Below, piece after piece: positions 1,751 through 54,984 of a stretch of DNA of 64,000 nt. Made by a program: the position numbers and the translations under genes. A model generated the notes under the pieces. That model made no database searches. It saw nothing but the letters and a program-made list of their open reading frames with translations, and was not told the DNA's origin. Origin of the DNA: a virus; the IMG/VR virus record IMGVR_UViG_3300028844_006119, positions 78,187 through 142,186 of that record, one strand, 5' to 3'. Position 1 is the stretch's first letter. The number at the start of each line of letters is the position of its first letter.

Positions 1751-2541
1751 TGTCCTTGTTCAAGGACGAGCAGGCTCATCCATTGATCCTCCTCAGGAAG
1801 TACCTGGGGATGTTCGGCATTGACGCCCTGGAGTGGGAGCCGCCCGTGATCAAGAGCTCGGTAGAGGATGAGACGGGGACTTCAATCGCCCGGATCAACC
1901 TGCTGAAGCTCATGGCCGCCATCGCCGTGGCCAATCACGATTCGTTCTGGAAGGACTGGCAGACGTTCCACTTCCTTACCGCTGCCTTGAACAACAACAT
2001 CCCATCCGCCGCAGTCCTGTCGGATCAGACCGTGGGACAGATGATGACCGCGGTAGACATCGCGAACACCATACGTAAAGACTTGGGGAAGGCCACGTCA
2101 GTGCCTTCCTTTGGGGAGAAAGTCGCTCGGTACATCGCAGCGCAGGCCCTCGAGTCTGGAATTTGGTACCTGCCGTCCCCTCTAGGCTTCGCAAACAAGT
2201 ACTGTGCCGGGCTCATGCAGCGGTGCGGGAGATGCAGTAATGAGGAGGAGCGTCAGGATGACGGGCTCTGTAGTTATTGTACGGAGAGGTACAGCATGGA
2301 CTCCCTGCAGAAGATGGAGCCAGATCCCGACCTGGCAGGGCAATGGGACGCATCTAAGGTGAAGCCTTTTACCCTGCACCCATACGAGGGAGTAAGTCAG
2401 CGCCTGACCGAAGCTCTCACCCATAAGGACGTGGTCCTGGGGGAGACTCAGGATGACATCTGCGCCGCTAAACTGCTGACCGGACTGGAGTACATGAGCT
2501 ATAGAAGGGCTCAACTCAGGTCTCAAGGGGCGACTCAGTGA
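1750..2541 (+). CDS. Hypothetical protein upstream of portal, with CxxC...CxxC
   Basis: TGATG-coupled to previous ORF; CGRC...CSYC. Confidence 0.75.
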   Translation: MSLFKDEQAHPLILLRKYLGMFGIDALEWEPPVIKSSVEDETGTSIARINLLKLMAAIAVANHDSFWKDWQTFHFLTAALNNNIPSAAVLSDQTVGQMMTAVDIANTIRKDLGKATSVPSFGEKVARYIAAQALESGIWYLPSPLGFANKYCAGLMQRCGRCSNEEERQDDGLCSYCTERYSMDSLQKMEPDPDLAGQWDASKVKPFTLHPYEGVSQRLTEALTHKDVVLGETQDDICAAKLLTGLEYMSYRRAQLRSQGATQ

Positions 2542-3503
2542 TTTCCAGCGGCTCCCTCTTTTTCTTCAGCGACGAAATACAAAAGTGTGCAGGCATGCCT
2601 GCGCCTCAGCAAGCGCAGCAACCTGAGAAGAAACAGAGCTTTCTCTCCAGGAACAAGATGACTTTGGGAGCCGGCGCTCTTGCCGCAGGGATGATCCTAA
2701 AGAACCCCCAGGCAGCCTCCAAGTACCTGGGCCAAGTGAAGCAGATGGTCACTAACCCTAAGGCAGCCCTTCAGCGTGGCTGGAGATCTGGCTCATCCAA
2801 CATCACCGGCAAGGTCCCCGGGGCCTCCGAGTCGGCGTCCAAGAGAGTCAGACTGTACAAGGACGTCTTAAGCTCGGCCGAGCAAGGCAAGCTTCAGTCC
2901 GTCAAATCCCTCGACACTATTGGCGCGGGGGGAACTTCTGCGAGAGCTTCGGGCTGGGGAAGCGCGGGTAGGTCGTTCAGTAGAGCAGGACAAGAGCTAA
3001 AGATGTCCCCCGATCTCACTAAGAGAGTGGGAGACATGCAAGCCAAGCTCAAGGCCGGAGAAGAAGTCTCAGAGCAAGCCTTGAAGGGCCTTTATGCTGA
3101 GATTCAGGGTGCTGGAAAGGGCCTTAAGATGAGGAAGGGCCTGTCGTACTATGCCCCTGGAGAGCGTACGATGATGACAGGTCTGGGCACAGGTCTGGGG
3201 GCAACGGCGGGCCTTGAGACCCACGATGCGGAAACAGGACGCAAGAGGGGCGTGGCGGAGCGAGTTGCTCGCGGGACTGTCGGTGCTGCGACTGGCACCG
3301 CGATGTCCTCCCTATTCATGGGACGAGGCGCAAGGCTCAGCAGCAAGAACTTATTCACAGGAAATAGAGGCTCTCTGCTCAGCCAAAAGGGACTTCTGCC
3401 AGTCGCGGCAACGACTCCCCTACTGGTGGGTACTGAGGCCGCTGGGGAGGTCGCGGGGAAGGGCGGAGAGCTGGCCGACAGAGCCTTTGGACAGAAATCA
3501 TGA
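2538..3503 (+). CDS. Leader-bearing (FFSDEIQKCA) basic Gly-rich protein with hydrophobic segments
   Basis: Overlapping GTGA start; leader at aa 9-18; LGAGALAAGMIL and GLGTGLGATAG segments. Confidence 0.75.
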   Translation: MISSGSLFFFSDEIQKCAGMPAPQQAQQPEKKQSFLSRNKMTLGAGALAAGMILKNPQAASKYLGQVKQMVTNPKAALQRGWRSGSSNITGKVPGASESASKRVRLYKDVLSSAEQGKLQSVKSLDTIGAGGTSARASGWGSAGRSFSRAGQELKMSPDLTKRVGDMQAKLKAGEEVSEQALKGLYAEIQGAGKGLKMRKGLSYYAPGERTMMTGLGTGLGATAGLETHDAETGRKRGVAERVARGTVGAATGTAMSSLFMGRGARLSSKNLFTGNRGSLLSQKGLLPVAATTPLLVGTEAAGEVAGKGGELADRAFGQKS

Positions 3504-5602
3504 ACGTAGTTTCTAGCGAATCAAACCGATTCAACCCGCGCCCTGTCGACTATGAGGGTGGCCGGGGCTTCGGCATTCGCTACCCGTCCCCCTTCTTCGA
3601 TGTCGCGCAGCAGTTTCTTCCGTCCGACGTACACCAGCTCCATCACTGGTGTCGGTACTACTTTCTGACCAACCCGGTTATCAACGCTGCCTGCTCCAAG
3701 ATGGCGGAGTACCCCGTCACTCCTCTCGTCTTTGAGACGGAAGACCCCAAGCTGGTAGAGCTGGGCAAGTCCCTAGAAGATCAGCTAAAGCTGCGATCTT
3801 TTCAGGTTGAAGTCGGACTAGACTACTTTGTCTACGGAAATGCGTTCATCTCGCTGTTCTTCCCGTTTGAGAAGTACCTCCTCTGCCCGAAGTGCAAGGA
3901 GCGTTACCGCGCCAGCAAGAACCGCTTCAGATACAAGTGGCGGAGCGGTCGCTTCTATCTGAAGGAGTGCAAGTGCGGGTACCAGGGGTACGCGAAGCAG
4001 CAGGATGTCTACATCCGCAGCGCGCGCGACATTCGCCTGGTTCGGTGGAATCCAGAGAACGTCAACATCAAGTACAACGAGATCACAGGTAAGGCGAAGT
4101 ACTACTTCAAGCTGCCTCGAGCGATCGCCAACGATATCAAGTTGGGCGACGCGGACACGATCGAGACGCTACCCCTTGAGTTCCTAGAGGCTGCCCGTAA
4201 GAAGAAGTCCCTCCTGTTTACTCAGGACAACCTCTATCACTTGAAGCGTCCGACGATTGCCCAGAAGGATCAGGGCTGGGGCACTCCCCTGATCTACCCC
4301 TTGCTGAAGGACGCGTTCTACCTGCAGGTCATGAAGAAGGCGAACGAGGCGGTCCTCATGGAACACATCGTTCCTATGAGGATACTCTTCCCTGGGCAGA
4401 GCACGGGCGGGAATGAGGGTCCATACGGATCCTATAACCTGAGCAACTGGAAAAAGAAGGTAGACGCTGAGATCAACATGTGGCGTCGGGACCACAACTA
4501 CATCCCAGTTCTGCCCGTGAACGTCGGGTTCCAGCAGATCGGCGGACAGGGCCGAGCCCTTCTGATGTACCAGGAGATGCGTCTTCTTTCGGAGCAGATG
4601 CTCGCGGGCGCAGGAATCCCTGTCGAGTTCATCTTCGGCGGGCTTCAGTGGAGCGGGTCCAGCACCTCCCTCCGGGCTCTGGAGAACATGTTCCTGGGGT
4701 ACAACAAGCAGCGCCATGAGCTCGTAAACAAGTTCATCGTGGAGAAGGTTTGCTCCTTCATGCGTTGGCCCAAGATCTCGGTGCGCTTTGACAAGTTCAA
4801 GATGGCCGACGATCTGCAGAGAAGCATGTTCTACCTGCAGCTCAACCAGGCGCAGAAGGTCAGTGACCGCAGGCTGCTTGAGGAGATCGGAGAGAACTTC
4901 GATCTCGAGAACGATCGCATGATGTCCGAGCTAAAGAAGAACCTTCAGACGCAGCGCACCATGCAGGTCGCCGGTGCTGACGTTCAGGGAGAGATCCAGC
5001 TTCGCACTTCCCGGTACCAGGCTAAGTCTCAGTCCCTAATGGCGAAGGCACAGGCCGAAGTCCAGATGGAGATGCAGAAGAAGCAGCTGGAGATGCAGCA
5101 GCAGATGCAGCAGCAGGTGCAGCAGGGTGCAAACCCTCAACAGGTTCAGGCGGCGCAGCAGGCGGCGCAGCAACAACAAGGCGCAGCAGCACAGGCCGCC
5201 CCGCAAGGTCAGGCTCAGCAGGGCGGAGGTCAGGCTCAGCAGACTCCCGGTATGCCGGACGGGGCCACCGCGTACGATGAGAACGCGAAGTCTCCTAACG
5301 ACACGGGGATGCCCGCAGCTATGGCGGGTATGACTTCTCAGATCCAGCAGGGAGCTGGAGGAGTAGACCTTCGATACATCGCCCAGAGAGCCGCGGCGTT
5401 CTTGAAAACGGTCAAGAAGGAGCAGGGCCCTGAGGCCATGTACAAGTCTTTGGCCGAGATGCAAACCGGCAATCCGAATCTCTATCAGCTGGTTGTCCAG
5501 CTATTGAACGATACAGGATCTAAGGAAAATCCCCAGAACGCCCAGGCGGCCCCCAAGCCTAACGGGAATCCGCAAGCGGATATTTCCCGTCAGGTGGGGT
5601 AG
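3500..5602 (+). CDS. Portal protein (with Zn-ribbon-like insert and Gln-rich C-terminal extension)
   Basis: Portal-like motif series: INAACSKMAEYP, LDYFVYGNAFI, RWNPENVNI, YHLKRP...GWGTPLI, LAGAGIPVEFI; CPKC...CKC insert. Confidence 0.75.
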   Translation: MNVVSSESNRFNPRPVDYEGGRGFGIRYPSPFFDVAQQFLPSDVHQLHHWCRYYFLTNPVINAACSKMAEYPVTPLVFETEDPKLVELGKSLEDQLKLRSFQVEVGLDYFVYGNAFISLFFPFEKYLLCPKCKERYRASKNRFRYKWRSGRFYLKECKCGYQGYAKQQDVYIRSARDIRLVRWNPENVNIKYNEITGKAKYYFKLPRAIANDIKLGDADTIETLPLEFLEAARKKKSLLFTQDNLYHLKRPTIAQKDQGWGTPLIYPLLKDAFYLQVMKKANEAVLMEHIVPMRILFPGQSTGGNEGPYGSYNLSNWKKKVDAEINMWRRDHNYIPVLPVNVGFQQIGGQGRALLMYQEMRLLSEQMLAGAGIPVEFIFGGLQWSGSSTSLRALENMFLGYNKQRHELVNKFIVEKVCSFMRWPKISVRFDKFKMADDLQRSMFYLQLNQAQKVSDRRLLEEIGENFDLENDRMMSELKKNLQTQRTMQVAGADVQGEIQLRTSRYQAKSQSLMAKAQAEVQMEMQKKQLEMQQQMQQQVQQGANPQQVQAAQQAAQQQQGAAAQAAPQGQAQQGGGQAQQTPGMPDGATAYDENAKSPNDTGMPAAMAGMTSQIQQGAGGVDLRYIAQRAAAFLKTVKKEQGPEAMYKSLAEMQTGNPNLYQLVVQLLNDTGSKENPQNAQAAPKPNGNPQADISRQVG

Positions 5603-5862
5603 CGCAGCATGGGGAGATCTATGCCCGCAGGGAACTTCAGCGGATCCCCGGCCCCTGAGGGGTACAGGTACGCAAGGATTTCCCTGGAGTTGTCTATTAG
5701 GCATCTTTCGTGGAAGATCGGCTCTTGGTCTCCTGAGTCGAAGTAGGTCTCCGATACGGTGTACCTCTTTGGCCTCCTCCCCACCTCATACCTGGACAGG
5801 CTGACCATCTTCTCATTCTCTACGATCTGGGCCGTGCACCAGTCGCACTTGAATCTATCCAT
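5590..5862 (-). CDS. Small hypothetical Zn-finger-like protein
   Basis: CDWC...HERC; coupled to upstream ORF. Confidence 0.65.
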   Translation of the reverse strand: MDRFKCDWCTAQIVENEKMVSLSRYEVGRRPKRYTVSETYFDSGDQEPIFHERCLIDNSREILAYLYPSGAGDPLKFPAGIDLPMLRYPT

Positions 5863-6166
5863 CGACGATGGCCAGCATCAGTACTCCGCTCTCATACCCG
5901 CAGATTTCGCATTTACCGTTGCCGTAGTAAGGCTGTAGGATGAGACCCTCGGTGCAGGTCGAGCAGACCCACAAGTAGTCCCCAAACGCATTATCGATAA
6001 GAGAGCATGTCTCACACGCCACATCACTACAGAGGCTTTCGGCCAAGGGACAGTACGCCGTATGTATCGGCTCGTCCCTCTGCTTCTTCTCTGTCGGGAC
6101 CGCCGGGGCATCTAAAGAGAAGCCGGAGGGCCGGGCAAAAAGCCCGGCCCTCCTCTTCTTACTCAC
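5855..6166 (-). CDS. Cys-rich hypothetical protein
   Basis: CETC, CSTC, CEIC pairs. Confidence 0.65.
   Translation of the reverse strand: MSKKRRAGLFARPSGFSLDAPAVPTEKKQRDEPIHTAYCPLAESLCSDVACETCSLIDNAFGDYLWVCSTCTEGLILQPYYGNGKCEICGYESGVLMLAIVDG
6125..6160 (+). terminator. GC-rich hairpin, possible terminator of + strand (portal) transcripts
   Basis: ggagggccgggc-aaaaa-gcccggccctcc, perfect 12-bp stem followed by tcttctt. Confidence 0.4.
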
Positions 6167-6266
6167 CGTCGAGCTCGTCTAGCTCAGCGAGCGCGTCCTT
6201 CAGGACGCGCTCGCTCTGCTGCATCAGCCCCACCACGAAGGCGAGGCCGAATAGCCCCACGACCAC
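6159..6266 (-). CDS. Small membrane peptide, 35 aa (MVVGLFGLAFVVGLMQQSERVLKDALAELDELDGE); not in the ORF track
   Basis: GGAGG upstream; start overlaps upstream TAG (TAGTG); stop overlaps start of 5855..6166. Confidence 0.5.
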   Translation of the reverse strand: MVVGLFGLAFVVGLMQQSERVLKDALAELDELDGE

Positions 6267-6349
6267 TACGCCTCCCGAAAGAGGCGGTCAACCTCTTCTT
6301 GTGGGGTCTCGGGGGTCGGGGTCTCAGTCTCGTCAGCTGTATAGATCAT
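6266..6349 (-). CDS. Small acidic peptide, 27 aa (MIYTADETETPTPETPQEEVDRLFREA); not in the ORF track
   Basis: AAGGAG RBS before ATG 6349; first ORF after the GTCATAA motif at 6392. Confidence 0.45.
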   Translation of the reverse strand: MIYTADETETPTPETPQEEVDRLFREA

Positions 6350-6391
6350 TCTTCACTCCTTTTTGGTCGGGCTATGTCCCGACCAAAAGAG

Positions 6392-6418
6392 TTATGACTC
6401 GTAAACAATAAGGATTCA
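6392..6418 (-). promoter_or_regulatory. Phage promoter-like motif (GTCATAA), divergent from the RNAP gene
   Basis: tgaat-N15-GTCATAA, 43 nt upstream of ATG 6349. Confidence 0.55.
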
Positions 6419-6419
6419 C

Positions 6420-9400
6420 ATGGCAAACCTGGCTCCAGGGGACGCATACCGCCTCCTCGAAGAAAGAACCAAAGAAGCCATCAAGAGTCACTTCCCGGTC
6501 GAAGGCCGAGAAAACAGACTCGAGTTGGTAGATATTTCCACGGATGAGGATGCCTCCTCTGCGTCTGGAAAGCACCACAGCTACAACCACACGTCTCAGA
6601 CGGACGCAAAGCTCCATGACAGAACATGGGGTCCCAACATCGTAGGGACGTTCCGGCTCGTAAACATGGAGACGGGTAAGGTCGTAGACCAGGGGAAGCG
6701 CACCCTGGGCCAGCTGCCTAAGATCACCAGTCGGTACAGCTACATCGTTGAGGGGAACGAACGTCAAGTCGACAGCGTCTTCCGCCTTAACCCCGGCGCC
6801 TATCACGTAGAGGCCGACAACGGAGATCTTCTTGCGAAGTGGAACGTCGCCGCAGGATCCAAGGTTGGTTCGTTCAAGATCTCCATTGAGCGTAAGCATC
6901 CCAAGAAACTGGGGGCCATGTACCTGATTGTGAAGAGTGGCACGCAGTCTACTCGCAAGATCCCGGCGTACGGAATCCTCTCCGCCCTGGGAGTATCCGA
7001 CCCTGCTATGCGCAAGGCGTGGGGAGAATCCGTATTCGAGGTAAACCGCAGGATCTCCAAGCCCAACGACCTTCTAAACTTTCACGAAGCGGTGGAGAAG
7101 CGCCGAGCGGGCAAGGATAAGTACGAGACGCCTACCCTCTCCGAGGCCCGCAAGTTTGCGAAGGAAGTCTTCGAGGGCGCAGAAGTAAACCCCGATACGA
7201 TGCTTGCTACGCTGGGCAAGAAGTTCACCAACATCTCTGGGGACGCTCTCCTGGCCTCCTCGGCCAAGGTGGTGGGAATTAGCAAGGGGACCGCGGAGCC
7301 TGACGACAGACAGTCTCTCTCCAACAAGCGCCTCTTCGGGATGGAAGATTTCATCCACGAGGAGATCTCTAAGGGATCGTCTCGGTTCGAGATGCAGAAG
7401 AAGATCCGGAACAACCTCGATCGTAAGGGCAAGATCTCAGACATTCTTCCGGCTGCGTCCGTGGGGTATGGGAGGCTGATCACGCGCAAGTTCAAGGCTG
7501 CCCAACTTCCGACCCAGACAAATCCCCTTCAGTTCGTGTCTAACCACACGAAGACGACCATTCTCGGTCAGGCGTTTGGCGGAATTAAGGGAGACAATGT
7601 CAACCTTGATCGAGACAAGCTGATCAATCCCTCTCACTTGGGGCTGCTTGATCCTCTGCAGACACCAGAGAACACCTCTACCGGCGTCTCGCTGCACATC
7701 CCAATCGGGGCCAATAAGAAAGGTCAGCAGCTTTACACAAAAGTCCTGAACGTAAAGACCGGGAAGTTCGAGAATAAAAACGCAGCGGAGATGGAGAAGG
7801 CCGTCGTTGCATACCCCGACCAGGTGAAAATCACCCGCACGAAGACCGGAGCCACAGTCCGGCCCCTGCACCCCGACGTTGTCGTCTATGACTCAGACCG
7901 CAGCACGGCCAAGAGGCCCTGGAAGGACGTCCAGTACGTTCTTCCCAACGCAAAGACACTATTCTCGGTTAGCGCAAACATGATCCCGTTCGTTCAGAAC
8001 GACAACGGGAACCGAGCCATGATGGCCGCTAAGCACCAGGAGCAAGCAGTCTCTCTGAAAGACCGAGAAGCCCCGCTGGTTCAGGCTGAATTTGCGGGAG
8101 GGGTCTCATTCGACCAGATGATCGGCAAGTTGAACTCTACTACCGCTAGTGTGGCCGGAACTGTGTCGAGAATCACCAAGGATTCTGTTTACATAAAGGG
8201 CGCGGCAGGAAAAGCGGTGTCCCACCCGATCTACAACCACCATCCCCTCAACGGCACGAAGCACATGATGCATTCGACTCCGGTTGTGAAGGTGGGAGAC
8301 AAGGTAAAGGTTGGACAGCTCATCGCCGACTCTAACTTCACCAAGGACGGCACCCTATCCTTGGGTACGAATCTTCGCGTCGGGTATCTGCCGTACAAGG
8401 GCTACAACTTTGAGGACGGGACCGTCATCTCGGAGACTGCCGCCAAGAAGTTGGTGTCCACCCATCTCCACATCGAAGAAGCGGAGATGTTCGCCAACGT
8501 AGTCGTAAACAGGAAGCTGTGGAGAAACTTCGCTGGGGCCAACAAGGCCACGGCAGAAGTGATGAGCAAGCTGGACGAGGATGGCGTCATCAAGGAGGGA
8601 GCCAAGGTAGTTCCCGACGATGTGTTGATCACTCGGCTGGTCAAGGCGGAGATGACTCGAGAGAACCAGGACGTCAAGAGGTCCCTGAAGAAGGCTATCC
8701 GGGACTACAAAGACGCCGCAGTGGTCTGGAAGCATGAGTACGGCGGCACTGTCGTTCGAGTCGTCAAGACTGCGAAGAAGATCCAGGTTCATATCCGCAC
8801 TGAGCAGACAATGGAGCCCGGAGATAAGCTGTCGGGGCGTCACGGTAACAAGGGAATCATCACCAAGATCCTGCCTGACGATATGATGCCCAAGGATAAG
8901 AGCGGGAAGCCCGTCCATGTCCTGATGAGCCCCGCAGGCGTCCCATCCCGTATGAATGTCGGGCAGGTCCTGGAGACGGCTGCAAGTAAGATTGCCCGCA
9001 AGACGGGAAAGTCGTACAAGATCGAGAACTTCGATGCCTCCGTTGATTACTCCCAGAAGATTAAGGATGAGCTCAAGAAGCACAATCTTTCCGATACGGA
9101 GGAGCTTTTCGATCCCGAAACCGGAGAGTCTCTCGGGCAGATCTTTACGGGTGAGCAGTACATGCTCAAGCTGGACCACCAGGCCGAAAAGAAGGTGTCT
9201 GCCCGATCTGGAGGATCTGGGTATGCCTATCGGCCCACCGGCGAGGCAATCTCCGGTTCGGGCATCGGGAAGGGCGGGCAACGAATTGGTGGCCTAGACA
9301 CCTACGCTCTGCTGGCACACGGAGCCAAGAGAAATCTGATGGAGATGCAGACCTACAAGTCTGACTCCGAGCAGGCCCGGGATGTCTGGATTCGGGTGAT

Positions 9401-12758: not shown

Positions 12759-13177
12759 ACAAGATCGCCGCATACGAAATCGCACTCGAGAGAATCGAAC
12801 TTGAGAAGCGGGCTGACTCCCTGGTGGAGGCCTACGGCACCAGTGAGGGCTACATGCCGGGTGCCTACCTTCAGGCGTTTGATCAGATCGAGAAGGAAGC
12901 CGGAATCCAGGCTATCGCAAATATCGGGAGCCGCCTCTCAACAGCGGCGCGAGGCACCATTAAAGGGATGATGGGGAGCGGCGGGGCAGTAGTCCGAAAG
13001 GGCGGGAAGATGCAGCTTAGCAGGGGAGCCGGACTTGGGGACACGGCTAAGTACTACGGAGCTCGAGGCGTGCAGCGCGCGGGAAGATTCGCCATGCAGA
13101 ATCCCGGCGCGACTGCAGCTGTTGGCGGGGTCGGAGGTGTCGGAGCTGCCGGCCTCGGGTACAAGGCTCTGAAGTAG
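12755..13177 (+). CDS. Leader-bearing (MNKIAAYE...FDQIEKEA) basic Gly-rich peptide precursor
   Basis: ATGA-coupled to RNAP; acidic N-half, cationic C-half ending in AVGGVGGVGAAGLGYK. Confidence 0.75.
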   Translation: MNKIAAYEIALERIELEKRADSLVEAYGTSEGYMPGAYLQAFDQIEKEAGIQAIANIGSRLSTAARGTIKGMMGSGGAVVRKGGKMQLSRGAGLGDTAKYYGARGVQRAGRFAMQNPGATAAVGGVGGVGAAGLGYKALK

Positions 13178-14619: not shown

Positions 14620-15960
14620 ATGGCACAACTCCTATTTCTGCCTGATGTCGACCCGAATTCCTTTTTCGAGAAGGAGGCGTCGATCTCGAAGATGCCCGAG
14701 GACGAGAAGGATTGGCCCAGCCACATCCTGAGCATGCTGTACGAGCAGCTGCCCTTCCTCAGCAAGTTCTCGGTCAACATCATGATCCAGAGAATGGAGC
14801 CGGAGGCAGGATTTGCGTTTGGTTACGCCCTGGTTCTGTCTAAGAGCGATCCGCGGGTCTCCACTGAGTCCAAGAACGTTGAGAACGGGATCCGCATTCC
14901 TCTCATCGTGGCAGATCGGCAGCTCCAGCCGTTCCATACCTTTGAGCTGAAGGGACAGGTCCGGCCCCTTACTCCTGAACGAGTCGCGGCTGCCATGATG
15001 AACCCCGCGATGTTCGACGGCCCGGCCACAAAGCCCGAGACTCAGAAGTCTCTCGTCGATCAGATGTACCCGCCCTACCAGCAGCGCCAGGGCTTCGGCA
15101 TGACCAGCAGTGGAAATGCAGGAGGCATGGGTAAGGTCAGTTCTATGCCCCTCTCTGCTATGACGGCCCCACAGCTAAAGCAGCACGCCCGACTGAAGGA
15201 AACTGAGAGGGGAGATGCCGCTGCGGCATCCATGACCAGCGGTCAGCGGCTGGAGCAGGCAGGAAGAGCTGCCATTGTCCCCACTGCTGCGGGTGCGTTG
15301 ATCTCGGCAGGCAGAGGTGCCATGAAAGGCGGCGGGACTTGGAAAAACAGACTTGCCCGTGGGGCGGCTGGGGTCACTACCGGAGCCCTAACGGGTGCGG
15401 GAATCTCTGCAGTAAATACCGGAGTTCAGGAGTCCGCTAGAGTGGCACGGGATGCTCAGAGGGCTAAGTTGGCCTCCCGGATTAAGAAGGGTCTGCCTCC
15501 TGCGCTCGCCCGCAACGCAGCAAAGGTAAAAGCAGTGCAGAATCCGGAGGCGGGCGCAGAGGTCCCTGCGGGGCTGCGGAAGAAGGGTTCGGTAAGGGAA
15601 GCCCACGTAAAGGAAGCACTGGCCCGCCTGGACTTCAATCCCAGCCGTAGGATTCCTTCAAACATGGTTATGAAGGGCTCTAAGGTCAAGGTGATGCCGG
15701 GCGTTACCGCCATGTCCCTGCGCTTCTTCCCCGTCATGGGAACAAAATTTGTAATAGGCGTGGATACCAAGCTGGCGAAGAAGCTCGGGAAGATGAAGGA
15801 TCAGAATCAGATCCGGCAAGCACTAATGGGGCCCATGAAGGCGGAGATCCGGGCTGCGCGCGGTAAGCGCCCCTCCCCCGGAATGTTCATGCTCTTCTCC
15901 AAGACGAAGACGGGATACGCGTACCAGGTTCCCACCCCCATCCCCGGGATGGCCGCGTGA
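14620..15960 (+). CDS. Putative head protein: N-terminal globular part followed by cationic Gly-zipper cargo
   Basis: GAGGA RBS favours ATG 14620; FFEKEAS near N-terminus; composition switches after GMGKVSS. Confidence 0.7.
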   Translation: MAQLLFLPDVDPNSFFEKEASISKMPEDEKDWPSHILSMLYEQLPFLSKFSVNIMIQRMEPEAGFAFGYALVLSKSDPRVSTESKNVENGIRIPLIVADRQLQPFHTFELKGQVRPLTPERVAAAMMNPAMFDGPATKPETQKSLVDQMYPPYQQRQGFGMTSSGNAGGMGKVSSMPLSAMTAPQLKQHARLKETERGDAAAASMTSGQRLEQAGRAAIVPTAAGALISAGRGAMKGGGTWKNRLARGAAGVTTGALTGAGISAVNTGVQESARVARDAQRAKLASRIKKGLPPALARNAAKVKAVQNPEAGAEVPAGLRKKGSVREAHVKEALARLDFNPSRRIPSNMVMKGSKVKVMPGVTAMSLRFFPVMGTKFVIGVDTKLAKKLGKMKDQNQIRQALMGPMKAEIRAARGKRPSPGMFMLFSKTKTGYAYQVPTPIPGMAA

Positions 15961-16775
15961 TTCCCTTCTACCCCAAGTTTGGAAGCCAGGAGGATGCTCC
16001 AGGGTATGGCCCTGCTGCGTCCGAGGATAAGTGCGAGAACTGCGCGCATTATCGTAACTTGGGGAACCAAGGGCACTGCGAGAAGTTCTCGTTTATGTGC
16101 CAGCCTGAGTACGCCTGTGACGACTTCCGGCCTTCGGGAGTAATCAAGGAGTCCAGCGTGGTTGCGGAGGCTGCGGCCCTCCCCCGGAAGAAGGTCGAGG
16201 CGGTACAGGACACTGCGCGTGCCCTAAAAGAGAGAAACATCTCTCGAGCCCTGAACTCTGCCCAAAAAGACCTGATGCCGGGGAGATACGACAAGGCCAT
16301 TGAGAACCTAAAGCATCTATACCCCAAAGAGGCTGCTTCTCCTTTCATGCAGGGACTCGATCCTCTTGCAGGGGAGGTCGCCCGGGGAGCTATCCGGGAT
16401 CGGCTGAATCCCGACGTCTCTTCGGAGGAAATGACCCGCAGACGGAGACTCGCGACGCTGGGCGGAGTAGTCGGAGGCGGAGTCCTGGTCCCTGGCGCAG
16501 TCTCCGCTGTCCTAGGGGCCGGTGTTGGAGCTATGGGGAATAGAGGGTTGGGGAGAGTTACGGGAGCCGCGCGCCAGGCAGGGCGGGCTCTGCGAGGAAC
16601 CTTTACCCGGGCAGGAAGTCCTGCTCTTATTGCCGGGGCAGGGATCGGAGCAATGGGGGCTCGCTCCCAATACGATTTAGGGGCGGGGCTTGCCGAGCTT
16701 GCCGCCGAGAAGCACGCCTCTACCGACCACAGCTTGCGGTCTTTTCTTAGGAAGAATCATGAACAAGAACGCTAA
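15957..16775 (+). CDS. Multi-cassette protein: Cys mini-domain plus Gly-zipper segment, separated by K-x-A/S sites
   Basis: KFGS, KESS, KEAA, KHAS; CENC...C...C; LGGVVGGGVLVPGAVSAVLGAGVGAMG. Confidence 0.65.
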   Translation: MIPFYPKFGSQEDAPGYGPAASEDKCENCAHYRNLGNQGHCEKFSFMCQPEYACDDFRPSGVIKESSVVAEAAALPRKKVEAVQDTARALKERNISRALNSAQKDLMPGRYDKAIENLKHLYPKEAASPFMQGLDPLAGEVARGAIRDRLNPDVSSEEMTRRRRLATLGGVVGGGVLVPGAVSAVLGAGVGAMGNRGLGRVTGAARQAGRALRGTFTRAGSPALIAGAGIGAMGARSQYDLGAGLAELAAEKHASTDHSLRSFLRKNHEQER

Positions 16776-29006: not shown

Positions 29007-29937
29007 ATCACGGGGCGTCACAGCTGAGGATCTTGAGAAAGCGGCATCTGTCCGTTTATTTGAGAAGGCTGCTGCCGCCGAAGACGTGGATCTCGGCTCA
29101 CTTGATGAAAATCAGGTAGAAGACCTCTACGTCACATTCCTTTCCAACCAGTCCAATGATGACTACACAAAAGAGGCTTCCGCCATGAACGACGAAATCG
29201 TTGACCTTTTCGAAAAGACCGCTGCAGCCGAGGGCATTGACCTCGACGACATGGCGGACCACGAGCTTGCTGAGCTCTACAACCACTACGTTGAGAACGT
29301 TCTGCCCGAGCAGGTCGAAGAGTACGAGAAGGGTGCTTCGTACGAGGTCGACGAGGCCACCGAGAAGCTCGCTGAGGCCGAGATTCTCGGTCGCCACATG
29401 GCGCGTGCCTACATGGATGAGTTCGACAAGGAGGCTGCGAGCGCAGCAGCGGCCGGTGCCAGACTGGACGCTGCTGCGGCCGAGGCCGGACGATGGGGCC
29501 AGTCGGGCAAGGTCGAGGCGCAGAACGCCGCGAACCGTGCCAAGGAATCGATTGGACGAGGCTACGAGTCTGCCAAGGCGAAGGGCAAGGCTGGCTATGA
29601 AGCTGGTGTCCGTGGTGCTAAGGCCACTGGTGCCGCAGTTGCTTCCGGTGCTCGGTCCTACGGCAATGCTATGACTGGTAAGCAGTTGCGAGAGGCTGTC
29701 TCCACCATGCGTAAGCAGAAGGGTGGATATCGATCTTCCGCAATGGGCCGCGGTAAGGCCCTTCGTGGCGGTGCCAAGACGCTAGCCGCATGGGGCGCAA
29801 CCGGTGCAGCTGGCTACGGCGCCAAGAAGGGCTACGACAGGATGACCAAGAAGTCCTCGATTGACGAGATCATTGAGGACCGCGCCAACGAGCTTCTCGG
29901 AGAGTTCCTCTTCGAGAGCGGTGTCGAGCTGGACTGA
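28984..29937 (+). CDS. Acidic scaffold-like protein with internal repeat and inserted cationic cassette
   Basis: GGAG RBS; repeats LFEKAAAAEDVDL...LY / LFEKTAAAEGIDL...LY; basic block between FDKEA and KKSS. Confidence 0.7.
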   Translation: MSLLTELESRGVTAEDLEKAASVRLFEKAAAAEDVDLGSLDENQVEDLYVTFLSNQSNDDYTKEASAMNDEIVDLFEKTAAAEGIDLDDMADHELAELYNHYVENVLPEQVEEYEKGASYEVDEATEKLAEAEILGRHMARAYMDEFDKEAASAAAAGARLDAAAAEAGRWGQSGKVEAQNAANRAKESIGRGYESAKAKGKAGYEAGVRGAKATGAAVASGARSYGNAMTGKQLREAVSTMRKQKGGYRSSAMGRGKALRGGAKTLAAWGATGAAGYGAKKGYDRMTKKSSIDEIIEDRANELLGEFLFESGVELD

Positions 29938-29945
29938 GAGTGGAA

Positions 29946-30227
29946 ATGCCTGCCAACACAGACATCATGAGATTCTTCTCAGACGAGATCTGTAAGTTGG
30001 CAGGCATGCCCGCACTCAAGGTTCCGGGCATGGGCAGTAAGGGACAACTATCTTCATTGATGGCCCGACCTGCCCATGCCCAGGCCGGTAACTTCGCAAA
30101 AGCACAAAAAGCACTGAAAACACCCACCACAGGAAGCGCCCCGAAAGGGATTAATCATGCTTCGTTAAAGGCGGTGGGCTCCACGGGATCTGTATCTTTA
30201 CCGCCACCTCCCGTGAAAACCGTCTAA
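29946..30227 (+). CDS. Leader-bearing (FFSDEICKLA) basic low-complexity peptide precursor
   Basis: No D/E after the leader; start 29940 or 29946. Confidence 0.7.
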   Translation: MPANTDIMRFFSDEICKLAGMPALKVPGMGSKGQLSSLMARPAHAQAGNFAKAQKALKTPTTGSAPKGINHASLKAVGSTGSVSLPPPPVKTV

Positions 30228-30251: not shown

Positions 30252-30992
30252 ATGAGCAACTACCGAAGCATGATTGATGACGCACTCCAGAGTGCAAGAG
30301 CCCGTATCGATGGCGGCAGCGCAGATCTGATGAAGACCGCTTCTGCCCCCGAGAACAGCATGGTCAAGGAGGCGTCCGAACTCGCAGACGCCCTTGAGTA
30401 TGTTGCCCACGCCTCTACGAACACTGGCTCCGCCGCTGACGCTGTTCGTGGCGAAATGGTTCGTTCCTTCTTTAAGAGCGCGGCAGGCGCTCCTGCCCAG
30501 AGCAGCACATCTGTTCAGGGCACCCAGGCACACGCCCCCACTGGAAAGAAGATCCAGGCAAAGGGCCAGTCTGTCGGAGGCTCGGCTCCTCAGTCGGAGA
30601 CCACTCCCGCCCCCGCAGATGGCCAGAAGCCGCTGCTCGAGTCCTTCAAGCAGGCAGAGGGTCAGTCTCTCTACGACATCCTGATGGCCAGTAAGACCGC
30701 AGGCAAGGGTGGCCCCTCCGAGAGCACGGCTACTGAGTCTGCTCAGGGCATTCCTTCTGGTAACGAGAACTCCAACCGTCAGGCGATTCTCGAGAGCAAC
30801 GAGGCTCCGGTCAACGCGACCCGCCGTCAGGCTAAGGCTCCCGTCCGTAAGCGCCTCGCGGAGGCGTTTGCCCACACGAACAGCACCACTGGCGACTCCA
30901 CGCTGAATGCAATGTTCCCTCAGGCCGCAGGTAAGGGATCCCACAAGATCGCCTCCGTGAAAGATCGGCTGAGCGCAATGGCTGGTGAGTAA
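30252..30992 (+). CDS. Head-module (scaffold/core-like) protein, K-x-A rich
   Basis: KTAS, KEAS, KSAA, KQAE, KTAG, KIAS. Confidence 0.75.
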   Translation: MSNYRSMIDDALQSARARIDGGSADLMKTASAPENSMVKEASELADALEYVAHASTNTGSAADAVRGEMVRSFFKSAAGAPAQSSTSVQGTQAHAPTGKKIQAKGQSVGGSAPQSETTPAPADGQKPLLESFKQAEGQSLYDILMASKTAGKGGPSESTATESAQGIPSGNENSNRQAILESNEAPVNATRRQAKAPVRKRLAEAFAHTNSTTGDSTLNAMFPQAAGKGSHKIASVKDRLSAMAGE

Positions 30993-31299
30993 TATGTCCT
31001 CTATTAGAGACAGGCTTGAGAAGATCGCTGCTGCCAAGGACGATAAGGGTGACCTCGCCCTTTATGTCTCTAAGAAGCTCTCGGAGAAAAGAGCATCCGT
31101 TGCGGAGTACTCTGTGCTCTTCGATAAGGTTGCCTCCGGTGACCTAGGAGAGCACACCCGTCAGGCCCTACTCGGCATCTGCGACACGATCCCAGAACCC
31201 ACTACTCTTTCGGAAAAGACAGCATCTGTGTATGATGTTATGGACTTTTCTGAGAATGACGCAAGAAGAGCTAGACTAGATCAGCTCCTAAAGCGTTAA
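30985..31299 (+). CDS. Small head-module protein, K-x-A rich
   Basis: EKIAA, EKRAS, DKVAS, EKTAS; start 30985 or 30994. Confidence 0.7.
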   Translation: MSNMSSIRDRLEKIAAAKDDKGDLALYVSKKLSEKRASVAEYSVLFDKVASGDLGEHTRQALLGICDTIPEPTTLSEKTASVYDVMDFSENDARRARLDQLLKR

Positions 31300-36847: not shown

Positions 36848-37200
36848 CGAATCGCAAGACGGACAACGGAAGGCCCTTCACTCGAGGGATGCTTCTTCCG
36901 GCTGCAGCAACCGGCGCTGGGATGTTTGCCGGAGGCATGATGGGTGCCGCCGGAGCACGGGCCATTCTCCGCTCCCCCGGTATGGCAGAAAAGCTCCGCA
37001 GAATGAGCCCGGCACAAAGAAAGGTCTTCGGCGAGCGAGCCCTTCTGGTGACTAATACCGCAGGCAACATGGCTGGGGCTGGGGCCGGGTACCTCGCCCA
37101 CTCGCTCTTTCAGGACGAGATGGACAAGAGAAAGAAGAGCAGGGAGAAGACTGCCTCCGCGTTTCTCTACTGCTTGGAGTACCTAAACAGCTATGAGTAG
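36844..37200 (+). CDS. Small basic Gly-rich membrane-like protein with C-terminal EKTAS
   Basis: AAATGAGMFAGGMMGAAG; AGAGAGYLAH; FQDEMDK...EKTASAF. Confidence 0.7.
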   Translation: MTNRKTDNGRPFTRGMLLPAAATGAGMFAGGMMGAAGARAILRSPGMAEKLRRMSPAQRKVFGERALLVTNTAGNMAGAGAGYLAHSLFQDEMDKRKKSREKTASAFLYCLEYLNSYE

Positions 37201-44408: not shown

Positions 44409-44696
44409 GTGGATCTTGAAGTCCTACATTTCTTCTCTGATGAGGTGGAGAAGACTGCGTCTGGCCCGTGGAATCAGAACGCTGGCGCGTTCGCAAGTGT
44501 CGCCGGGGAGCTGGACGATGGCGGCGGGTTCACTGTCTCTGATCTTCGGAAGTACCTGCGCTACCCACAGTCGCGATCCTCAGTTCAGCGACCTACTAAG
44601 CCTACGGTGATGTGGACCTCCTCGGATGCAGAGGACTGGCTCATCTTCAGCCCAAACAAGCACCGGGCGTTTGTTCGCTGGGCTAGAGGCAAATGA
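44409..44696 (+). CDS. Leader-bearing (LHFFSDEVEKTA) small protein
   Basis: GTG start with AGGT RBS; leader nearly identical to next gene. Confidence 0.7.
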   Translation: MDLEVLHFFSDEVEKTASGPWNQNAGAFASVAGELDDGGGFTVSDLRKYLRYPQSRSSVQRPTKPTVMWTSSDAEDWLIFSPNKHRAFVRWARGK

Positions 44697-44740
44697 TGGA
44701 TCTCGAAGTCTTACATTTCTTTTCTGATGAGGTGGAGAAG
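44409..44740 (+). repeat. 45-nt direct repeat encoding the shared leader (44409..44453 and 44696..44740)
   Basis: 41/45 identical; differences are the start codon and three synonymous positions. Confidence 0.9.
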
Positions 44741-44941
44741 CTCGCAGCGAAGAGTCGGCACAACTACTACATGCGGAATCGTAATCAGATTCTGCAGAAG
44801 CAGCGTCAGTACCGAGCCAAGAACAAGGCCGGTATTGCACGCAGGCAGAAGATGTACCGGCGGAAGGTAAAGATGGGCGCGCATAGACAGCGTAAGCGCA
44901 TCTCTACGGGCCACTCCTACACCTACGGCGGGTACAGATAG
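44693..44941 (+). CDS. Leader-bearing (LHFFSDEVEKLA) protamine-like Arg/Lys-rich peptide precursor
   Basis: 64 aa after the leader: 21 K/R, no D/E. Confidence 0.75.
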   Translation: MMDLEVLHFFSDEVEKLAAKSRHNYYMRNRNQILQKQRQYRAKNKAGIARRQKMYRRKVKMGAHRQRKRISTGHSYTYGGYR

Positions 44942-46173: not shown

Positions 46174-46178
46174 AGACC

Positions 46179-48029
46179 TCATCGGCCCATGTGTGACTCA
46201 ATCATAACCCGAGCGCTCTCTTCGAGGGCCTTGGGCAGATCGGGTACGGTTGCTACAAGCCCGTAGCGCCCCACACCAAAGGCATTGTCGTAGTAGTCAG
46301 AGTTCTGAGATCCAATGCCCAGAATCGATACCACGATCCCATCTACTCGCATCTCCCGAAGGACTGCGTGAAGGTCTTCTACGGCGTTCCCGGTGCTTCT
46401 CCGCCCTCGGCAGCTAGTCGGGAACCCGTCTGTAATCATCAAGACGGCCCTATCTGTCTTGGCCGTCTTGGCCCATTCCCAGGCGGCATCCAAGGCCTGG
46501 ACCATAGAGGTCATCCCCATTGTAAGTCCGGGGACGTTCTTTGGGCTGCCCACCTTGGAGAAGAAGAAGAGCTCGGAAGAGAACCCCCAGAGCTGAAGTC
46601 GGACATTCACTCCCTTGCAGGCAAAGTCGATATTAGCGACTGCCTGGTCCAGGAGGTCCATGCCCCACCCAGCCATGGACCCGGACACGTCCATCAGGAC
46701 CAACAGGTCCATGCCTCCGTACTTACGAGTCTCCTTAAAGAGCTTGGTCGTAGAAAACGAGTTCGAGATCTTTGCGTTGATCACGGACTCAATGTCCAGG
46801 TCTTGCCCTGTCCAGGCCCTACGCATCTCCTTCTTCATCTTCACGTTCTCGAGATGCCTGCGCATGCGGGCCGCCCGAGGCGTGGGACTAGGAAGTCTCT
46901 GGGAGGGGGTGACCATAGATCCCCGAATGCCGGAGACCTTGGCTGCAGACAGGAGGATGTCCTCTTGCCCACGCTTTCGGCTCTTCTTAGCCTTCCCCAG
47001 CTCCTTCTTGGCTACCTGAATTCGGGAGAACATCTTCTCAGTCCCGCTCTTTAGGAGCTTCTCCAGGGAAGAGTCTTCCTTCGAGCCGTCCTTTCCGGTC
47101 TTGCTGTCATCGTCCTTGGCTGTCATCAGCTTCTGGATCTCAAGCAGCTTCTTGGCGGAGACCTTCTTCTTCCTCTTCCTGCCAGTAGGGTCATTCTCGG
47201 GCTGGAGGTCTTTCCCTCCAAGTGGATTGTCCTCGTTATCCCCGTGGCCTTTTCCCGAATCTCCCATGTTGGAGATGGCCTTGTTCAGCAGGTCCAGCTT
47301 CATCTGCTGCTGTTGCTGTCGGGTGCTGTTTTGCTGCGGATCTGGCGGGAACTGCTTCAACAGCTCATCGGCGATGTCGTCGACTAGGCGGGACGTAAGG
47401 GCAATACACGCCTTGTTGTCTACAAGCTCTACTCTCGAGCGAGCAATCTTCATATGCTTGGCACATGCCTTGAACTCATCGGGAGCGCCAGGGGTCTCCA
47501 CCCCGGCAGCGATTCTTCCCAGGTAGGAGATCAAGTCCTTCTCAGCCTGATCCTCCATGTCGTTTGCCGCAATGTCATGCCATCTCTGCCGAAGAAGGTC
47601 TGCACCTCCAGCGTACAGTTCTCCCCACACCGAACAGCACCGCCAGTCCTCCAGGACGTTCCACAGGTGATGAACCAGGCCCTCCAGCTTAGCTGTATAG
47701 GGAATGGCGTCCGGGTGGGTCTTGGGAATGCTGGCTTTCTTCAGTAGCCGCTCTACCGCCTTCTCACGGAAAGCCTCCGTCAGCTCGAGGTCTGTGCCCC
47801 CGAATGGGTGGCTGATCTCATGCTCCAGGATGAGGTATGCCTCCGGGTCTTGGAGAGGCACCCGGAAGAATGTGGCGCAGTCTGTGCTTCCAGACGGGGC
47901 ATTGACCAGGTCAAAGTCCTTCCCCATCATCTTAGAGAAGGTGGCCGTGAGGATCTGCATACGTTCCAGCAGTTCCCCAGGCGTCCCTCCCATTGCCCCC
48001 AGGTCGAGGGGGGTTCGATTACCAGTCAT
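46179..48029 (-). CDS. VWA-domain protein with N-terminal HExxH metallopeptidase-like motif (CobT/MoxR-partner type)
   Basis: HEISH...NVLEDWR; MIDAS DVSGSM; MITDGFP; ILGIG. Confidence 0.85.
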   Translation of the reverse strand: MTGNRTPLDLGAMGGTPGELLERMQILTATFSKMMGKDFDLVNAPSGSTDCATFFRVPLQDPEAYLILEHEISHPFGGTDLELTEAFREKAVERLLKKASIPKTHPDAIPYTAKLEGLVHHLWNVLEDWRCCSVWGELYAGGADLLRQRWHDIAANDMEDQAEKDLISYLGRIAAGVETPGAPDEFKACAKHMKIARSRVELVDNKACIALTSRLVDDIADELLKQFPPDPQQNSTRQQQQQMKLDLLNKAISNMGDSGKGHGDNEDNPLGGKDLQPENDPTGRKRKKKVSAKKLLEIQKLMTAKDDDSKTGKDGSKEDSSLEKLLKSGTEKMFSRIQVAKKELGKAKKSRKRGQEDILLSAAKVSGIRGSMVTPSQRLPSPTPRAARMRRHLENVKMKKEMRRAWTGQDLDIESVINAKISNSFSTTKLFKETRKYGGMDLLVLMDVSGSMAGWGMDLLDQAVANIDFACKGVNVRLQLWGFSSELFFFSKVGSPKNVPGLTMGMTSMVQALDAAWEWAKTAKTDRAVLMITDGFPTSCRGRRSTGNAVEDLHAVLREMRVDGIVVSILGIGSQNSDYYDNAFGVGRYGLVATVPDLPKALEESARVMIESHMGR

Positions 48030-48372
48030 TTTCTTTCTTCATCCTCTCCTTAATTGCCCCAGCGATTGCCCAGGCCTTTGGCTTGCGCCGGTAGCTGATG
48101 ACGGTCCAGTGCCCCATGGGGGCATCGGACTCGAGCATGGACGTCACATCCTCCGTGTACTGCTCCTGGGCCTCCGCCTCGCACTGTCGGAGTAGCTTAC
48201 TGCTCCTTCGAGACCGCTCCATTCTGCGAAGTTCGCCCTCCAAGAGATACTCCGCTTCCTCCTCTACGCAGGTGTTGAGATACTGAAGGACCGAGTCCAT
48301 GTCGGCCTTCCTTGCCCGGTTGGTGAACCACCCGGTCAGCTCTTCGAAAGTACCGAACATGCGGGCTCCCAT
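48019..48372 (-). CDS. Hypothetical protein between AAA and VWA genes
   Basis: Overlaps both neighbours in an operon arrangement. Confidence 0.6.
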   Translation of the reverse strand: MGARMFGTFEELTGWFTNRARKADMDSVLQYLNTCVEEEAEYLLEGELRRMERSRRSSKLLRQCEAEAQEQYTEDVTSMLESDAPMGHWTVISYRRKPKAWAIAGAIKERMKKENDW

Positions 48373-49229
48373 AGCTTCACGTTAGCGATGTTGACGGAGA
48401 AGATGCTCTGAATTCGAGCTCGAATCTTGTCCCTATGGTCCGGCTCGAACTTGGCCTCCAGGATGCGAAACATCCTCTCCTTCCCGATTCGCTCTGTAAG
48501 GCGGACCAGGTAGCAGAGGTCACGAGTGGAGAGGGCGTAGTCCCATTCCCCGGTACGAGATTCTCCCGCCAGGGTCAGTAGACGGCTGACGAGTCTCCGC
48601 TCATTGACCGCTGCGGGAGAAGAGAACTGCGCCTCCAGTAGCCGGGACTCGTCCTTTTCGTCCATGTACGAGACTTCCGCGAAGTTAAAGCGCGACTGCA
48701 ACGCCTCGTTCAAGGAGTAAGTGCCGCCATAGCCCGGGTTCATCGTACCGACGATCCAGAACTGACAGCCCTTGTTCACCTTGAAGGTCTTGCCCAGGAA
48801 CGGGGCTTCTACTGCACGCCGGAAGTCAGCGACGCTGAACAGGGCGGAGTGCATCTCTGGGCGGAGGGTGTTGATCTCCTCCAAGATCAGAACGCATGCG
48901 CCAGTCTCATTCGCCACCTCGATGGCAGTAGTCAGGGTGCCCAGCGTAAAGAAAACGCTGTCTCCCTGCATGCCGAAGGTGCCGATCAGGTCCCGCGTGT
49001 CTGTCTCGCTGTTGCAGTTCTGCCGGACACGGGACGCGCCAATCTCCGAGCAGAACTCTTCGATGGCCAAGGTCTTGCCCGTGCCCTTGGGGCCCTTCAG
49101 GATTAGAGGATCTCCCCAGGCCAACTCCTCCAGGGTCCCCACAATTCCAGTATCCACGAACAGGTCGTCGTGGTCAGGTACCAGGTCTTCGGCGCTAAGC
49201 CGTACGAATGGAATATCTCCCATTTTCAT
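48336..49229 (-). CDS. MoxR/CbbQ-like AAA+ ATPase
   Basis: Walker A GPKGTGKT; DLIG; Walker B variant LILEEIN; GTMNPGYGG..LNEALQSRF; STR. Confidence 0.88.
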   Translation of the reverse strand: MKMGDIPFVRLSAEDLVPDHDDLFVDTGIVGTLEELAWGDPLILKGPKGTGKTLAIEEFCSEIGASRVRQNCNSETDTRDLIGTFGMQGDSVFFTLGTLTTAIEVANETGACVLILEEINTLRPEMHSALFSVADFRRAVEAPFLGKTFKVNKGCQFWIVGTMNPGYGGTYSLNEALQSRFNFAEVSYMDEKDESRLLEAQFSSPAAVNERRLVSRLLTLAGESRTGEWDYALSTRDLCYLVRLTERIGKERMFRILEAKFEPDHRDKIRARIQSIFSVNIANVKLWEPACSVLSKS

Positions 49230-54482: not shown

Positions 54483-54558
54483 CGTGTAAGCTCCTAAGAT
54501 TTCGCAGGCCTAATCATATCTCATTGAAGTAAATGGTGCAGTCTGCTTACGGCGTGGG

Positions 54559-54984
54559 TCACAGCCCGAGAATGTGGGTAGCCGCAGGCCCTGCGGTGTC
54601 CTTTACCTTGCCGTACCACTCCCCGAATAGGTGGCTCGGCACATTCTGTTCCCAGTACGTGGCCATATCCGCCACTCTGGGGTTCTTTTTGATTGCCGGG
54701 ATAAGGGATTTTGCTGCTTCTGCCTTACCTAGGCCCTTAGCGGTCGCCATGGCGAACTCCGGCCCCATCGCTAAGACTTCTGGTCGGGCAGCATTGTGGG
54801 CTGCCGTGTTCAATCTGTTCACTCTCTCTGGGTTCAGCGCCCCGCCGGGGCCGAACAGCTTCCCGTATCCCCTAGCCGTGCTGCCTCGGATACCTGGAGA
54901 GTTCCAGTGTTTTACGGCAAAGCCTGGGCTGATGGCCTGCTTCTCAAGCTCGTCCCTAAAGAAGTGAAGGACATCGGGGTGCAT
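54559..54984 (-). CDS. Leader-bearing (VLHFFRDELEKQA) protein; start may be further upstream (ORF open to 55164)
   Basis: Leader matches 44409/44693 at VLHFF.DE.EK.A; AAGGAAGG before ATG 54984. Confidence 0.65.
   Translation of the reverse strand: MHPDVLHFFRDELEKQAISPGFAVKHWNSPGIRGSTARGYGKLFGPGGALNPERVNRLNTAAHNAARPEVLAMGPEFAMATAKGLGKAEAAKSLIPAIKKNPRVADMATYWEQNVPSHLFGEWYGKVKDTAGPAATHILGL

Follow-up and report, generated by a model that had tools for sequence, protein, structure and literature searches.

Comparative evidence for a probable cleavable K-x-A leader peptide on putative head-internal proteins of an uncultured phage clade

The window analysed here comprises the final 64 kb of a 142-kb IMG/VR record (IMGVR_UViG_3300028844_006119; estimated completeness 77%) from an uncultured phage with a genome size of ~185 kb. 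It carries a block of virion genes and six open reading frames (ORFs) that share one short peptide, [A/F]-F-[S/R]-D-E-[I/V/L]-x-K-x-A. We refer to this peptide as the tag, to the segment that it closes at the N-terminus of a protein as the leader, and to the part after the final Ala as the cargo; genes are named by their first coordinate (Table 1). For comparison, 34 related IMG/VR loci were located through the capsid protein, and 11 larger relatives (G001-G009, G012, and G013) were retrieved whole; complete relatives measure 165-195 kb and have terminal repeats. The closest cultured phages are the Vibrio phages D69, D181, and D148, with a capsid-protein identity of 25%.

Table 1. Tag copies, other K-x-A leaders, and landmark genes of the window (sites are hydrophobic-x-K-x-A-[S/G/A] or similar)
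Feature	Positions	Strand	Gene or ORF	Strong tag copy	Remarks
Virion block	~500 to 45,900	+			
N-terminal leader, 18 residues	2538..2591	+	2538-3503	2562-2591	ends Q-K-C-A
Portal-like gene	3500-5602	+			
Fused beta-beta' RNA polymerase	6420-12755	+			2112 residues; single ORF directly after the portal-like gene in the head module
Looser internal copy, A-F-D-Q-I-E-K-E-A	12875..12901	+	12755-13177		residues 41-49; Gly-rich basic part next
N-terminal leader ending F-F-E-K-E-A	14620..14679	+	14620-15960		446-residue protein
Head-module gene	16759-18747				four sites
Terminase large subunit	21861-23582	+			
Head-core protein	25327-26208	+			six sites, hydrophobic-x-K-x-A-[S/G/A]
N-terminal leader, 22 residues	26198..26263	+	26198-26491	26234-26263	cargo a 75-residue Gly/Ala-rich basic peptide
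Head-maturation protease	27033-29006	+			three sites
Scaffold-like acidic repeat protein	28984-29937	+			six K-x-A-type sites, nested basic cassette, conserved acidic C-terminal tail
Internal copy, A-Y-M-D-E-F-D-K-E-A	29407..29436	+	28984-29937		mid scaffold-like gene, where acidic repeats change to the basic Gly/Ala cassette
N-terminal leader	29940..30002	+	29940-30227	29973-30002	start likelier the ATG at 29946
Head-module gene	30252-30992				three sites
Second-type leader ending R-L-E-K-I-A	30985..31029	+	30985-31299		
Major capsid protein	32346-33482	+			
Looser copy, F-Q-D-E-M-D-K	37108-37128				near the C-terminus of its gene
N-terminal leader, 17 residues	44409..44459	+	44409-44696	44430-44459	cargo 78 residues
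N-terminal leader, 17-18 residues	44693..44746	+	44693-44941	44717-44746	
Tag inside ORF	54934..54987	-	54559-55152	54963-54934	~65 residues from the likely start; then 124-residue basic cargo

All six strong copies listed in a first-pass annotation of the window were present, and no seventh was found in the whole 142-kb record. That annotation had placed the tag at or near the N-terminus, which holds for five copies (8-22 residues from the start), but not for the sixth, in ORF 54559. Its three looser copies are likewise real, although they are internal or near the C-terminus and not N-terminal. From amino-acid composition, ~1e-4 copies per proteome were expected by chance, and none appeared in 60 Markov-1 random genomes. 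The copies use different codons (AGC, TCC, TCA, and TCT for Ser; AGG for Arg), which points to selection at the peptide level. Only the adjacent leaders at 44409 and 44696 depart from this: they are identical at 41 of the first 45 nucleotides and differ only by silent changes; therefore, at least that leader was copied recently. As the annotation had claimed, similarity ends at the final Ala and the cargo is basic: an all-against-all blastp comparison of the cargo parts showed no mutual similarity (best E 0.11 over 11 residues), and all six have isoelectric points of 10.0-11.8. Similarity thus does not run through the protein bodies, as it would in a family of paralogs.

The cargo of gene 2538 is a 303-residue basic protein with Gly/Ala-rich hydrophobic stretches, and its ortholog in G007 retains the leader A-F-V-D-E-M-Q-K-L-S. 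Gene 29940 encodes a 74-residue Pro/Gly-rich basic peptide; its orthologs in 13 relatives keep an aromatic-acidic leader ending in K-x-A or K-x-S, while the cargo diverges. The 64-residue cargo of gene 44693 is protamine-like (21 Lys and Arg, no Asp or Glu), is conserved in G001, G012, and G013, and may be a DNA-condensing internal protein in its mature form. The last 14 residues of this mature part and its orthologs are invariant save one position, and the last eight, which are Tyr/Gly-rich, are fully invariant. The cargo of gene 44409 had no relative among the 11 other genomes, and tblastn of the whole proteins detected no orthologs of genes 44409, 26198, or 54559 in five whole relatives (G001-G005); relatives of gene 54559 were recognised through the tag, a conserved N-terminal piece, and clustering of the cargo. 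This last gene adjoins a GyrB-like gene outside the head operon, and the piece ahead of its tag is conserved in three relatives (G001, G012, and G013). In the scaffold-like protein, an alignment of 10 relatives shows conservation of the internal tag and the block preceding it and variable sequence past K-x-A. None of the six tagged genes of the window carries a known domain.

The motif can be divided into a K-x-A half, which belongs to a clade-wide signal, and an F-F-x-D-E aromatic-acidic half, which is exchangeable. In four clade genomes, the pattern hydrophobic-x-K-x-A-[S/G/A] was enriched 2.3-3.7-fold relative to shuffles of each protein (z 5-9), and the reversed pattern showed no enrichment. 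The excess peaked with the Ala at residues 10-25 (6.5-fold, z 18) and was 4.5-fold at residues 25-50. In this genome, the sites cluster in head-module proteins. Across 15 capsid proteins down to 41% identity, Lys23 is invariant and Ala25 nearly invariant (32412-32420), marking a candidate site for the removal of a 25-residue propeptide. The leaders of genes 14620 and 30985 also end in K-x-A, but lack the F-F-x-D-E part. An N-terminal R-L-Q-K-I-A-A leader resembling that of gene 30985 was seen on a 277-residue protein encoded 45,228-44,395 bases before the window start (G000, plus strand). No conserved K-x-A propeptide was found for the portal or for the RNA polymerase, whose N-terminal T-K-E-A is confined to close relatives, so that no conserved propeptide is claimed for it. 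At all K-x-A sites, acidic residues are favoured at P4, P6, and P7 (0.27, 0.19, and 0.24 at internal sites, against a background of 0.13).

A profile of the whole tag identified 43 ORFs in 12 clade genomes with scores above the best reversed-sequence score, 42 of which have at least 25 residues after the tag and fall into 23 cargo clusters. Orthologs down to ~40% capsid-protein identity retain the tag, with diverging cargo. An enrichment of aromatic residues at P9 is seen at N-terminal sites (0.21) and not at internal ones (0.08), and this, with the acidic preference seen everywhere, indicates that the tag in part extends the site consensus and in part is specific to the terminus. Two G001 proteins end with the aromatic-acidic half, in each case 10-12 residues after a K-x-A site followed by Ser, suggesting that this half can act apart from a K-x-A of its own. 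One is a cassette-bearing protein of the gene 54559 family, and the other is a 143-residue singleton from a non-structural region (L119:1533-1961), in which the preceding site is K-Q-A before Ser. A G-G-x-A...D-x-D stretch in this singleton recalls polymerase-beta-type nucleotidyltransferases, although it gave no Pfam match.

Among the relatives, a 686-residue protein of G004 (L096:8147-10204) with the tag A-F-A-D-E-L-G-K-Q-A carries an InPase domain (PF18823, E 1.9e-38), which has been reported as characteristic of polyvalent proteins packaged in phage virions (PMC5512222). Tagged orthologs of this protein occur in G002 and G008, related cargo in G003, and an untagged homolog in G005; no ortholog was found in the window's own record, which is incomplete.

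Outside the clade, IMG/VR scans for the tag (F-F-S-D-E..K.A, V-L-H-F-F-x-D-E, and F-F-x-D-E-L-E-K) gave scattered, chance-level hits and, in addition, one unrelated protein of an AT-rich prophage. An N-terminal match in contig G015 was also rejected, as the contig is an unrelated 46-kb phage. The K-x-A signal was present in Vibrio phage D69, where we counted sites in the 26 annotated plus-strand virion-block genes of a 50-kb stretch (OZ195729.1:136000-185999; L157). There were 27 sites against 3.8 expected, compared with 1 against 3.5 for the reversed pattern, and they include the N-termini of the protease homolog, the capsid protein, and a basic 151-residue protein. The F-F-x-D-E tag was not found in this stretch. 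The tag thus appears confined to one uncultured clade, and the K-x-A signal appears to reach much further.

Next, we considered the head protease as the enzyme that would read this signal. Structural prediction of its residues 1-330 from a 66-row alignment of representatives yielded a model with a predicted local distance difference test score (pLDDT) of 85.5, which superseded a first model (20-row alignment; pLDDT 54) that had weak matches only. Residues ~40-290 adopt the assemblin/gp21 fold and are followed by a C-terminal extension of ~360 residues. The model matched T4 gp21 (PDB ID: 5jbl) with Z 9.5 and a root mean square deviation of 2.8 Å over 131 residues, and the proteases of varicella-zoster and pseudorabies viruses with Z 8.3-8.6 (1vzv, 8.6; 4v08, 8.5). 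The top 35 rows of the structure search were all proteases of this fold, unrelated folds began at Z 5.8, and Foldseek E-values were no better than 7e-3. His138 and Ser194, candidate members of a Ser-His-His catalytic triad, are invariant and His137 nearly so in 66 sequences. At the sequence level, the PHROG family 'head maturation protease' matched 16 of 20 clade members (best E 2.4e-8); the protease had no match in the PDB, and Pfam and NCBIfam returned no protease family, just intein domains in two relatives. These Hint/intein domains stand right after an invariant S-M-G (L017:2660-3649 and L034:4226-5215; Hom_end_hint E 2.6e-8). A profile search of 1.8 billion representatives returned 3,477 clusters at E ≤1e-3 and 1,125 at E ≤1e-30, many of 500-1,500 residues, so that the family comprises at least 3,477 clusters at 50% identity. 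Many of its members matched in two to four stretches, which suggests that inteins are frequent in the family.

The protease itself carries two conserved K-x-A sites, at residues 37-39 (27141-27149) and at residues 293-295 (27909-27917), the latter a K-x-A-[S/A] between the protease domain and the C-terminal extension. Among 66 diverse family members, Lys and Ala were retained in 62 and 63 at the first site and in 56 and 60 at the second, and both sites have a hydrophobic P5 and Gly, Ser, or Ala at P1'. In the model, both lie in low-pLDDT linkers flanking the folded domain (residues 28-38 and 294-312). The C-terminal extensions of 142 family members contained 194 K-x-A sites against 31.8 expected, compared with 28 against 31.5 for the reversed pattern.

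The evidence from gene fusion and fission is unusually clear: relatives join and split genes exactly at K-x-A. Genes 1750 and 2538 of the window correspond in G001 to one 619-residue ORF with a bare K-T-A at the joint, where the window's second gene starts anew with a long leader. In the slot of gene 26198, six relatives encode the Gly/Ala-rich peptide as part of the upstream protein, with L-F-G-E-K-x-A at the junction, and eight others have a separate gene with leaders of two other kinds, all ending in K-x-A. In the gene 54559 family, K-T-A followed by Ser stands directly ahead of the tag in G012 and G013, and G001 has a cassette of ~295 residues inserted at this joint. The scaffold-like proteins of relatives carry one or two basic cassettes after the internal tag copy. 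This basic Gly/Ala cassette occurs twice in the scaffold-like genes of L004, L005, L007, L008, L009, and L011 (~5200-7000 in each locus) and once in the window; hence, its copy number varies.

From the motif, its conservation, its movable and two-part build, the site statistics, and the protease fold, all of which were computed, we infer cutting at K-x-A, presence in the virion, an addressing role, and ejection, and consider with moderate confidence that the shared peptide is a cleavable propeptide marking head-internal cargo. In this scheme, F-F-x-D-E and the following hydrophobic residue, probably in an amphipathic helix, would recruit a protein to the assembling prohead core or to the protease there. 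The head protease would cut after K-x-A, usually with a hydrophobic P5 ahead and Ser, Gly, or Ala behind. After assembly, the scaffold-like and core proteins would be cut into pieces, the capsid protein and the protease itself would be trimmed, and the small basic cargo (Gly/Ala-rich peptides and the protamine-like protein) would be freed within the capsid, where it would remain with the DNA and probably exit alongside it. Cargo built into a head protein would need the joint only, and stand-alone cargo would carry the longer leader.

The two parts of this scheme, both put forward in the first-pass annotation, differ in their support. Predicted cutting after K-x-A by the phage's own head protease is well supported by comparison, through the enrichment of sites, their N-terminal bias, their near-invariance at the ends of the capsid protein and of the protease domain, the fusion and fission joints, and the assemblin/gp21 fold. 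Addressing was drawn by analogy from T4, on which the aromatic-acidic half most likely brings a protein to the prohead core or to the protease held there. The annotation had further described a genome-wide, shufflable system. The first term is an overstatement, given six copies in a record of 142 kb and a tag restricted to one uncultured clade; the second is borne out by the leader duplication at 44409/44696, the leader swaps, the cassette insertion at a joint, and the C-terminal copies in a relative.

Several observations weigh against an addressing peptide. The acidic preference at P4, P6, and P7 extends to ordinary K-x-A sites, so the tag may in part reflect an extended specificity of the protease. 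A full copy also stands inside the scaffold-like protein, before a cassette that is already part of that protein and needs no address, and leaders without the aromatic-acidic half occupy the 26198 slot in relatives, so this half is not obligatory. Both C-terminal copies come from one metagenomic contig, and D69 shows the K-x-A signal without the tag across the 50-kb stretch. Regarding cutting, the catalytic residues assignable in the protease are limited to His138 and Ser194, and cutting and packaging in this uncultured clade are predicted. A complex prediction for the capsid protein, the scaffold-like protein, and an 82-residue tagged protein scored 0.00, without controls, and was informative neither way.

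These points shape the main rival, namely that the peptide is a substrate motif only: an extended, best-fit protease site on a pro-segment that would keep basic or membrane-active peptides harmless until they are in the head, with no addressing. The proteins would then enter the prohead in another way, for example through the charge of the cargo or its affinity for acidic scaffold, and the six cargo parts are indeed all basic and the scaffold-like proteins acidic. It is the main rival because of the tag inside the scaffold-like protein, the other K-x-A-ending leaders on the same cargo in relatives, and the origin of the C-terminal copies, and the general acidic preference fits it as well. Three observations speak against a mere substrate: the enrichment of aromatic P9 residues is limited to N-terminal sites, two G001 C-termini carry the aromatic-acidic half with no K-x-A after it, and fused cargo has a bare K-x-A joint and stand-alone cargo a long leader. 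We regard this alternative as rather unlikely.

The tag might instead be recognised by a different partner (for example, an enzyme that modifies the proteins, a chaperone, or a pathway for secretion or membrane insertion), to which the K-x-A ending would be incidental; the Gly-zipper-like hydrophobic stretches in several cargo parts could suggest this. However, the tag always ends in or adjoins the K-x-A signal that is also found in the protease, the capsid protein, and the scaffold-like proteins. The virion block running from the portal past the capsid gene contains five of the six genes, and no modifying enzyme was noticed beside the tagged genes, for which no systematic search was made; we judge this reading improbable. 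A plain paralog family, to which the near-identical leaders of the adjacent genes would point, and a chance match were excluded by the dissimilar cargo parts, the codon differences among the remaining leaders, the chance expectation, and the retention of the tag in divergent orthologs.

The proposed cleavable propeptide was compared with known systems. In T4, a 10-residue capsid targeting sequence (CTS) on the internal proteins IPI-III and Alt is removed by the prohead protease gp21 and can load foreign proteins (PMC9026906, PMC9958956); targeting depends on its N-terminal part and processing on residues 8 and 10, and a C-terminal propeptide is likewise removed from Alt (PMC9026906). The likeness is extensive: a peptide of about 10 residues common to unrelated, mostly basic proteins that are head-internal in T4 and putatively so here; a two-part build, with targeting (putative here) in front and processing at an end that is, here by prediction, a head-protease site; a scaffold core with many cutting sites (predicted here); propeptides that may also be C-terminal; and the same protease fold. 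In contrast, the tag has no sequence likeness to the CTS, the predicted cut follows K-x-A and precedes Ser, Gly, or Ala instead of following L/I-x-E, the protease is fused to a long C-terminal extension, and the tag is also internal and C-terminal. Moreover, the phage is not T4-like, its nearest cultured capsid protein being 25% identical, and neither portal nor protease had T4-type Pfam or PHROG matches. The K-x-A ending and the lack of T4-type family matches indicate that the system works like that of T4 without being a member of it.

Herpesvirus proteases share the assemblin fold and have the consensus V/L/I-x-A, cut before Ser. No use of this site as a portable leader on unrelated cargo is known in herpesviruses. 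In UL26/UL80a, an N-terminal protease is fused to scaffold and freed at a release site (PMC4498786), and the cut falls between Ala and Ser (substrate in PMC13486704). The protease described here has the same order of an N-terminal protease domain and then a linker with a conserved site ending in Ala before Ser or Ala, and a scaffold-like protein is encoded adjacent to it. It differs in that P3 is Lys and P5 hydrophobic, where herpesvirus sites have a hydrophobic P3 (and Tyr at P4 of the release site), and in that His138 and Ser194 alone were assigned.

In phiKZ and SPN3US, N-terminal propeptides are removed from many head and ejection proteins at a single short consensus, as is predicted here, long propeptides are cut several times, and the protease cuts itself; their consensus ends in Glu, however, and in place of a short tag common to all, most propeptides are long (111-254 residues) (PMC10052503, PMC5694885). 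Polyvalent proteins resemble the present case in the delivery of unrelated modules in an HK97-fold shell, with the InPase domain carrying the tag in relatives, but their cleavage is attributed mostly to embedded zincin-like peptidases (PMC5512222). The comparison extends to encapsulins. Their cargo-loading peptide is a short terminal peptide on unrelated cargo of an HK97-fold shell, which is not removed and binds the shell protein directly. Overall, the system works like both the CTS/internal-protein system of T4 and the head proteolysis of giant phages and belongs to neither, as tag, cutting rule, and lineage all differ.

Among the other genes of the window, the RNA polymerase ORF is of the bacterial type, with domains of beta (Rpb2 domain 6, E 1e-65; domain 7) ahead of those of beta' (Rpb1 domains 2, 3, and 5). 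Just past the virion block, on the opposite strand, the region 46179-49223 encodes a VWA CoxE-like protein (PF05762, E 6.6e-7), whose gene neighbour encodes a P-loop-like G-P-K-G-T-G-K-T; together they form a MoxR/VWA-type pair.

If the cleavable-propeptide reading is correct, a lineage without sequence kinship to T4 either evolved or retained cargo loading in the style of T4, in which unrelated proteins carry a short address and a protease site, and the cutting rule of that lineage would be close to that of herpesvirus proteases. It also offers a testable specificity, hydrophobic-x-K-x-A with the cut before Ser, Gly, or Ala, for a protease family of thousands that is named in no curated library, and since cultured Vibrio phages share the K-x-A signal, the rule is open to laboratory tests. 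Sequence alone would then suffice to predict, in phages of this kind, which proteins are internal to the virion and probably injected, including the InPase-domain protein in relatives and, here, possibly transcription factors alongside the fused beta-beta' RNA polymerase gene of the head module. More tentatively, it is possible that this unnamed assemblin-fold protease family runs a 'cutting code' of K-x-A before Ser, which in this clade has been joined to a short addressing helix working N-terminally, internally, or C-terminally. Any protein or cassette could then be loaded and released in the capsid, new cargo would be acquired by insertion or splitting at the joints, and these phages may thus possess a second, independent programmable capsid-loading system outside T4-like phages.

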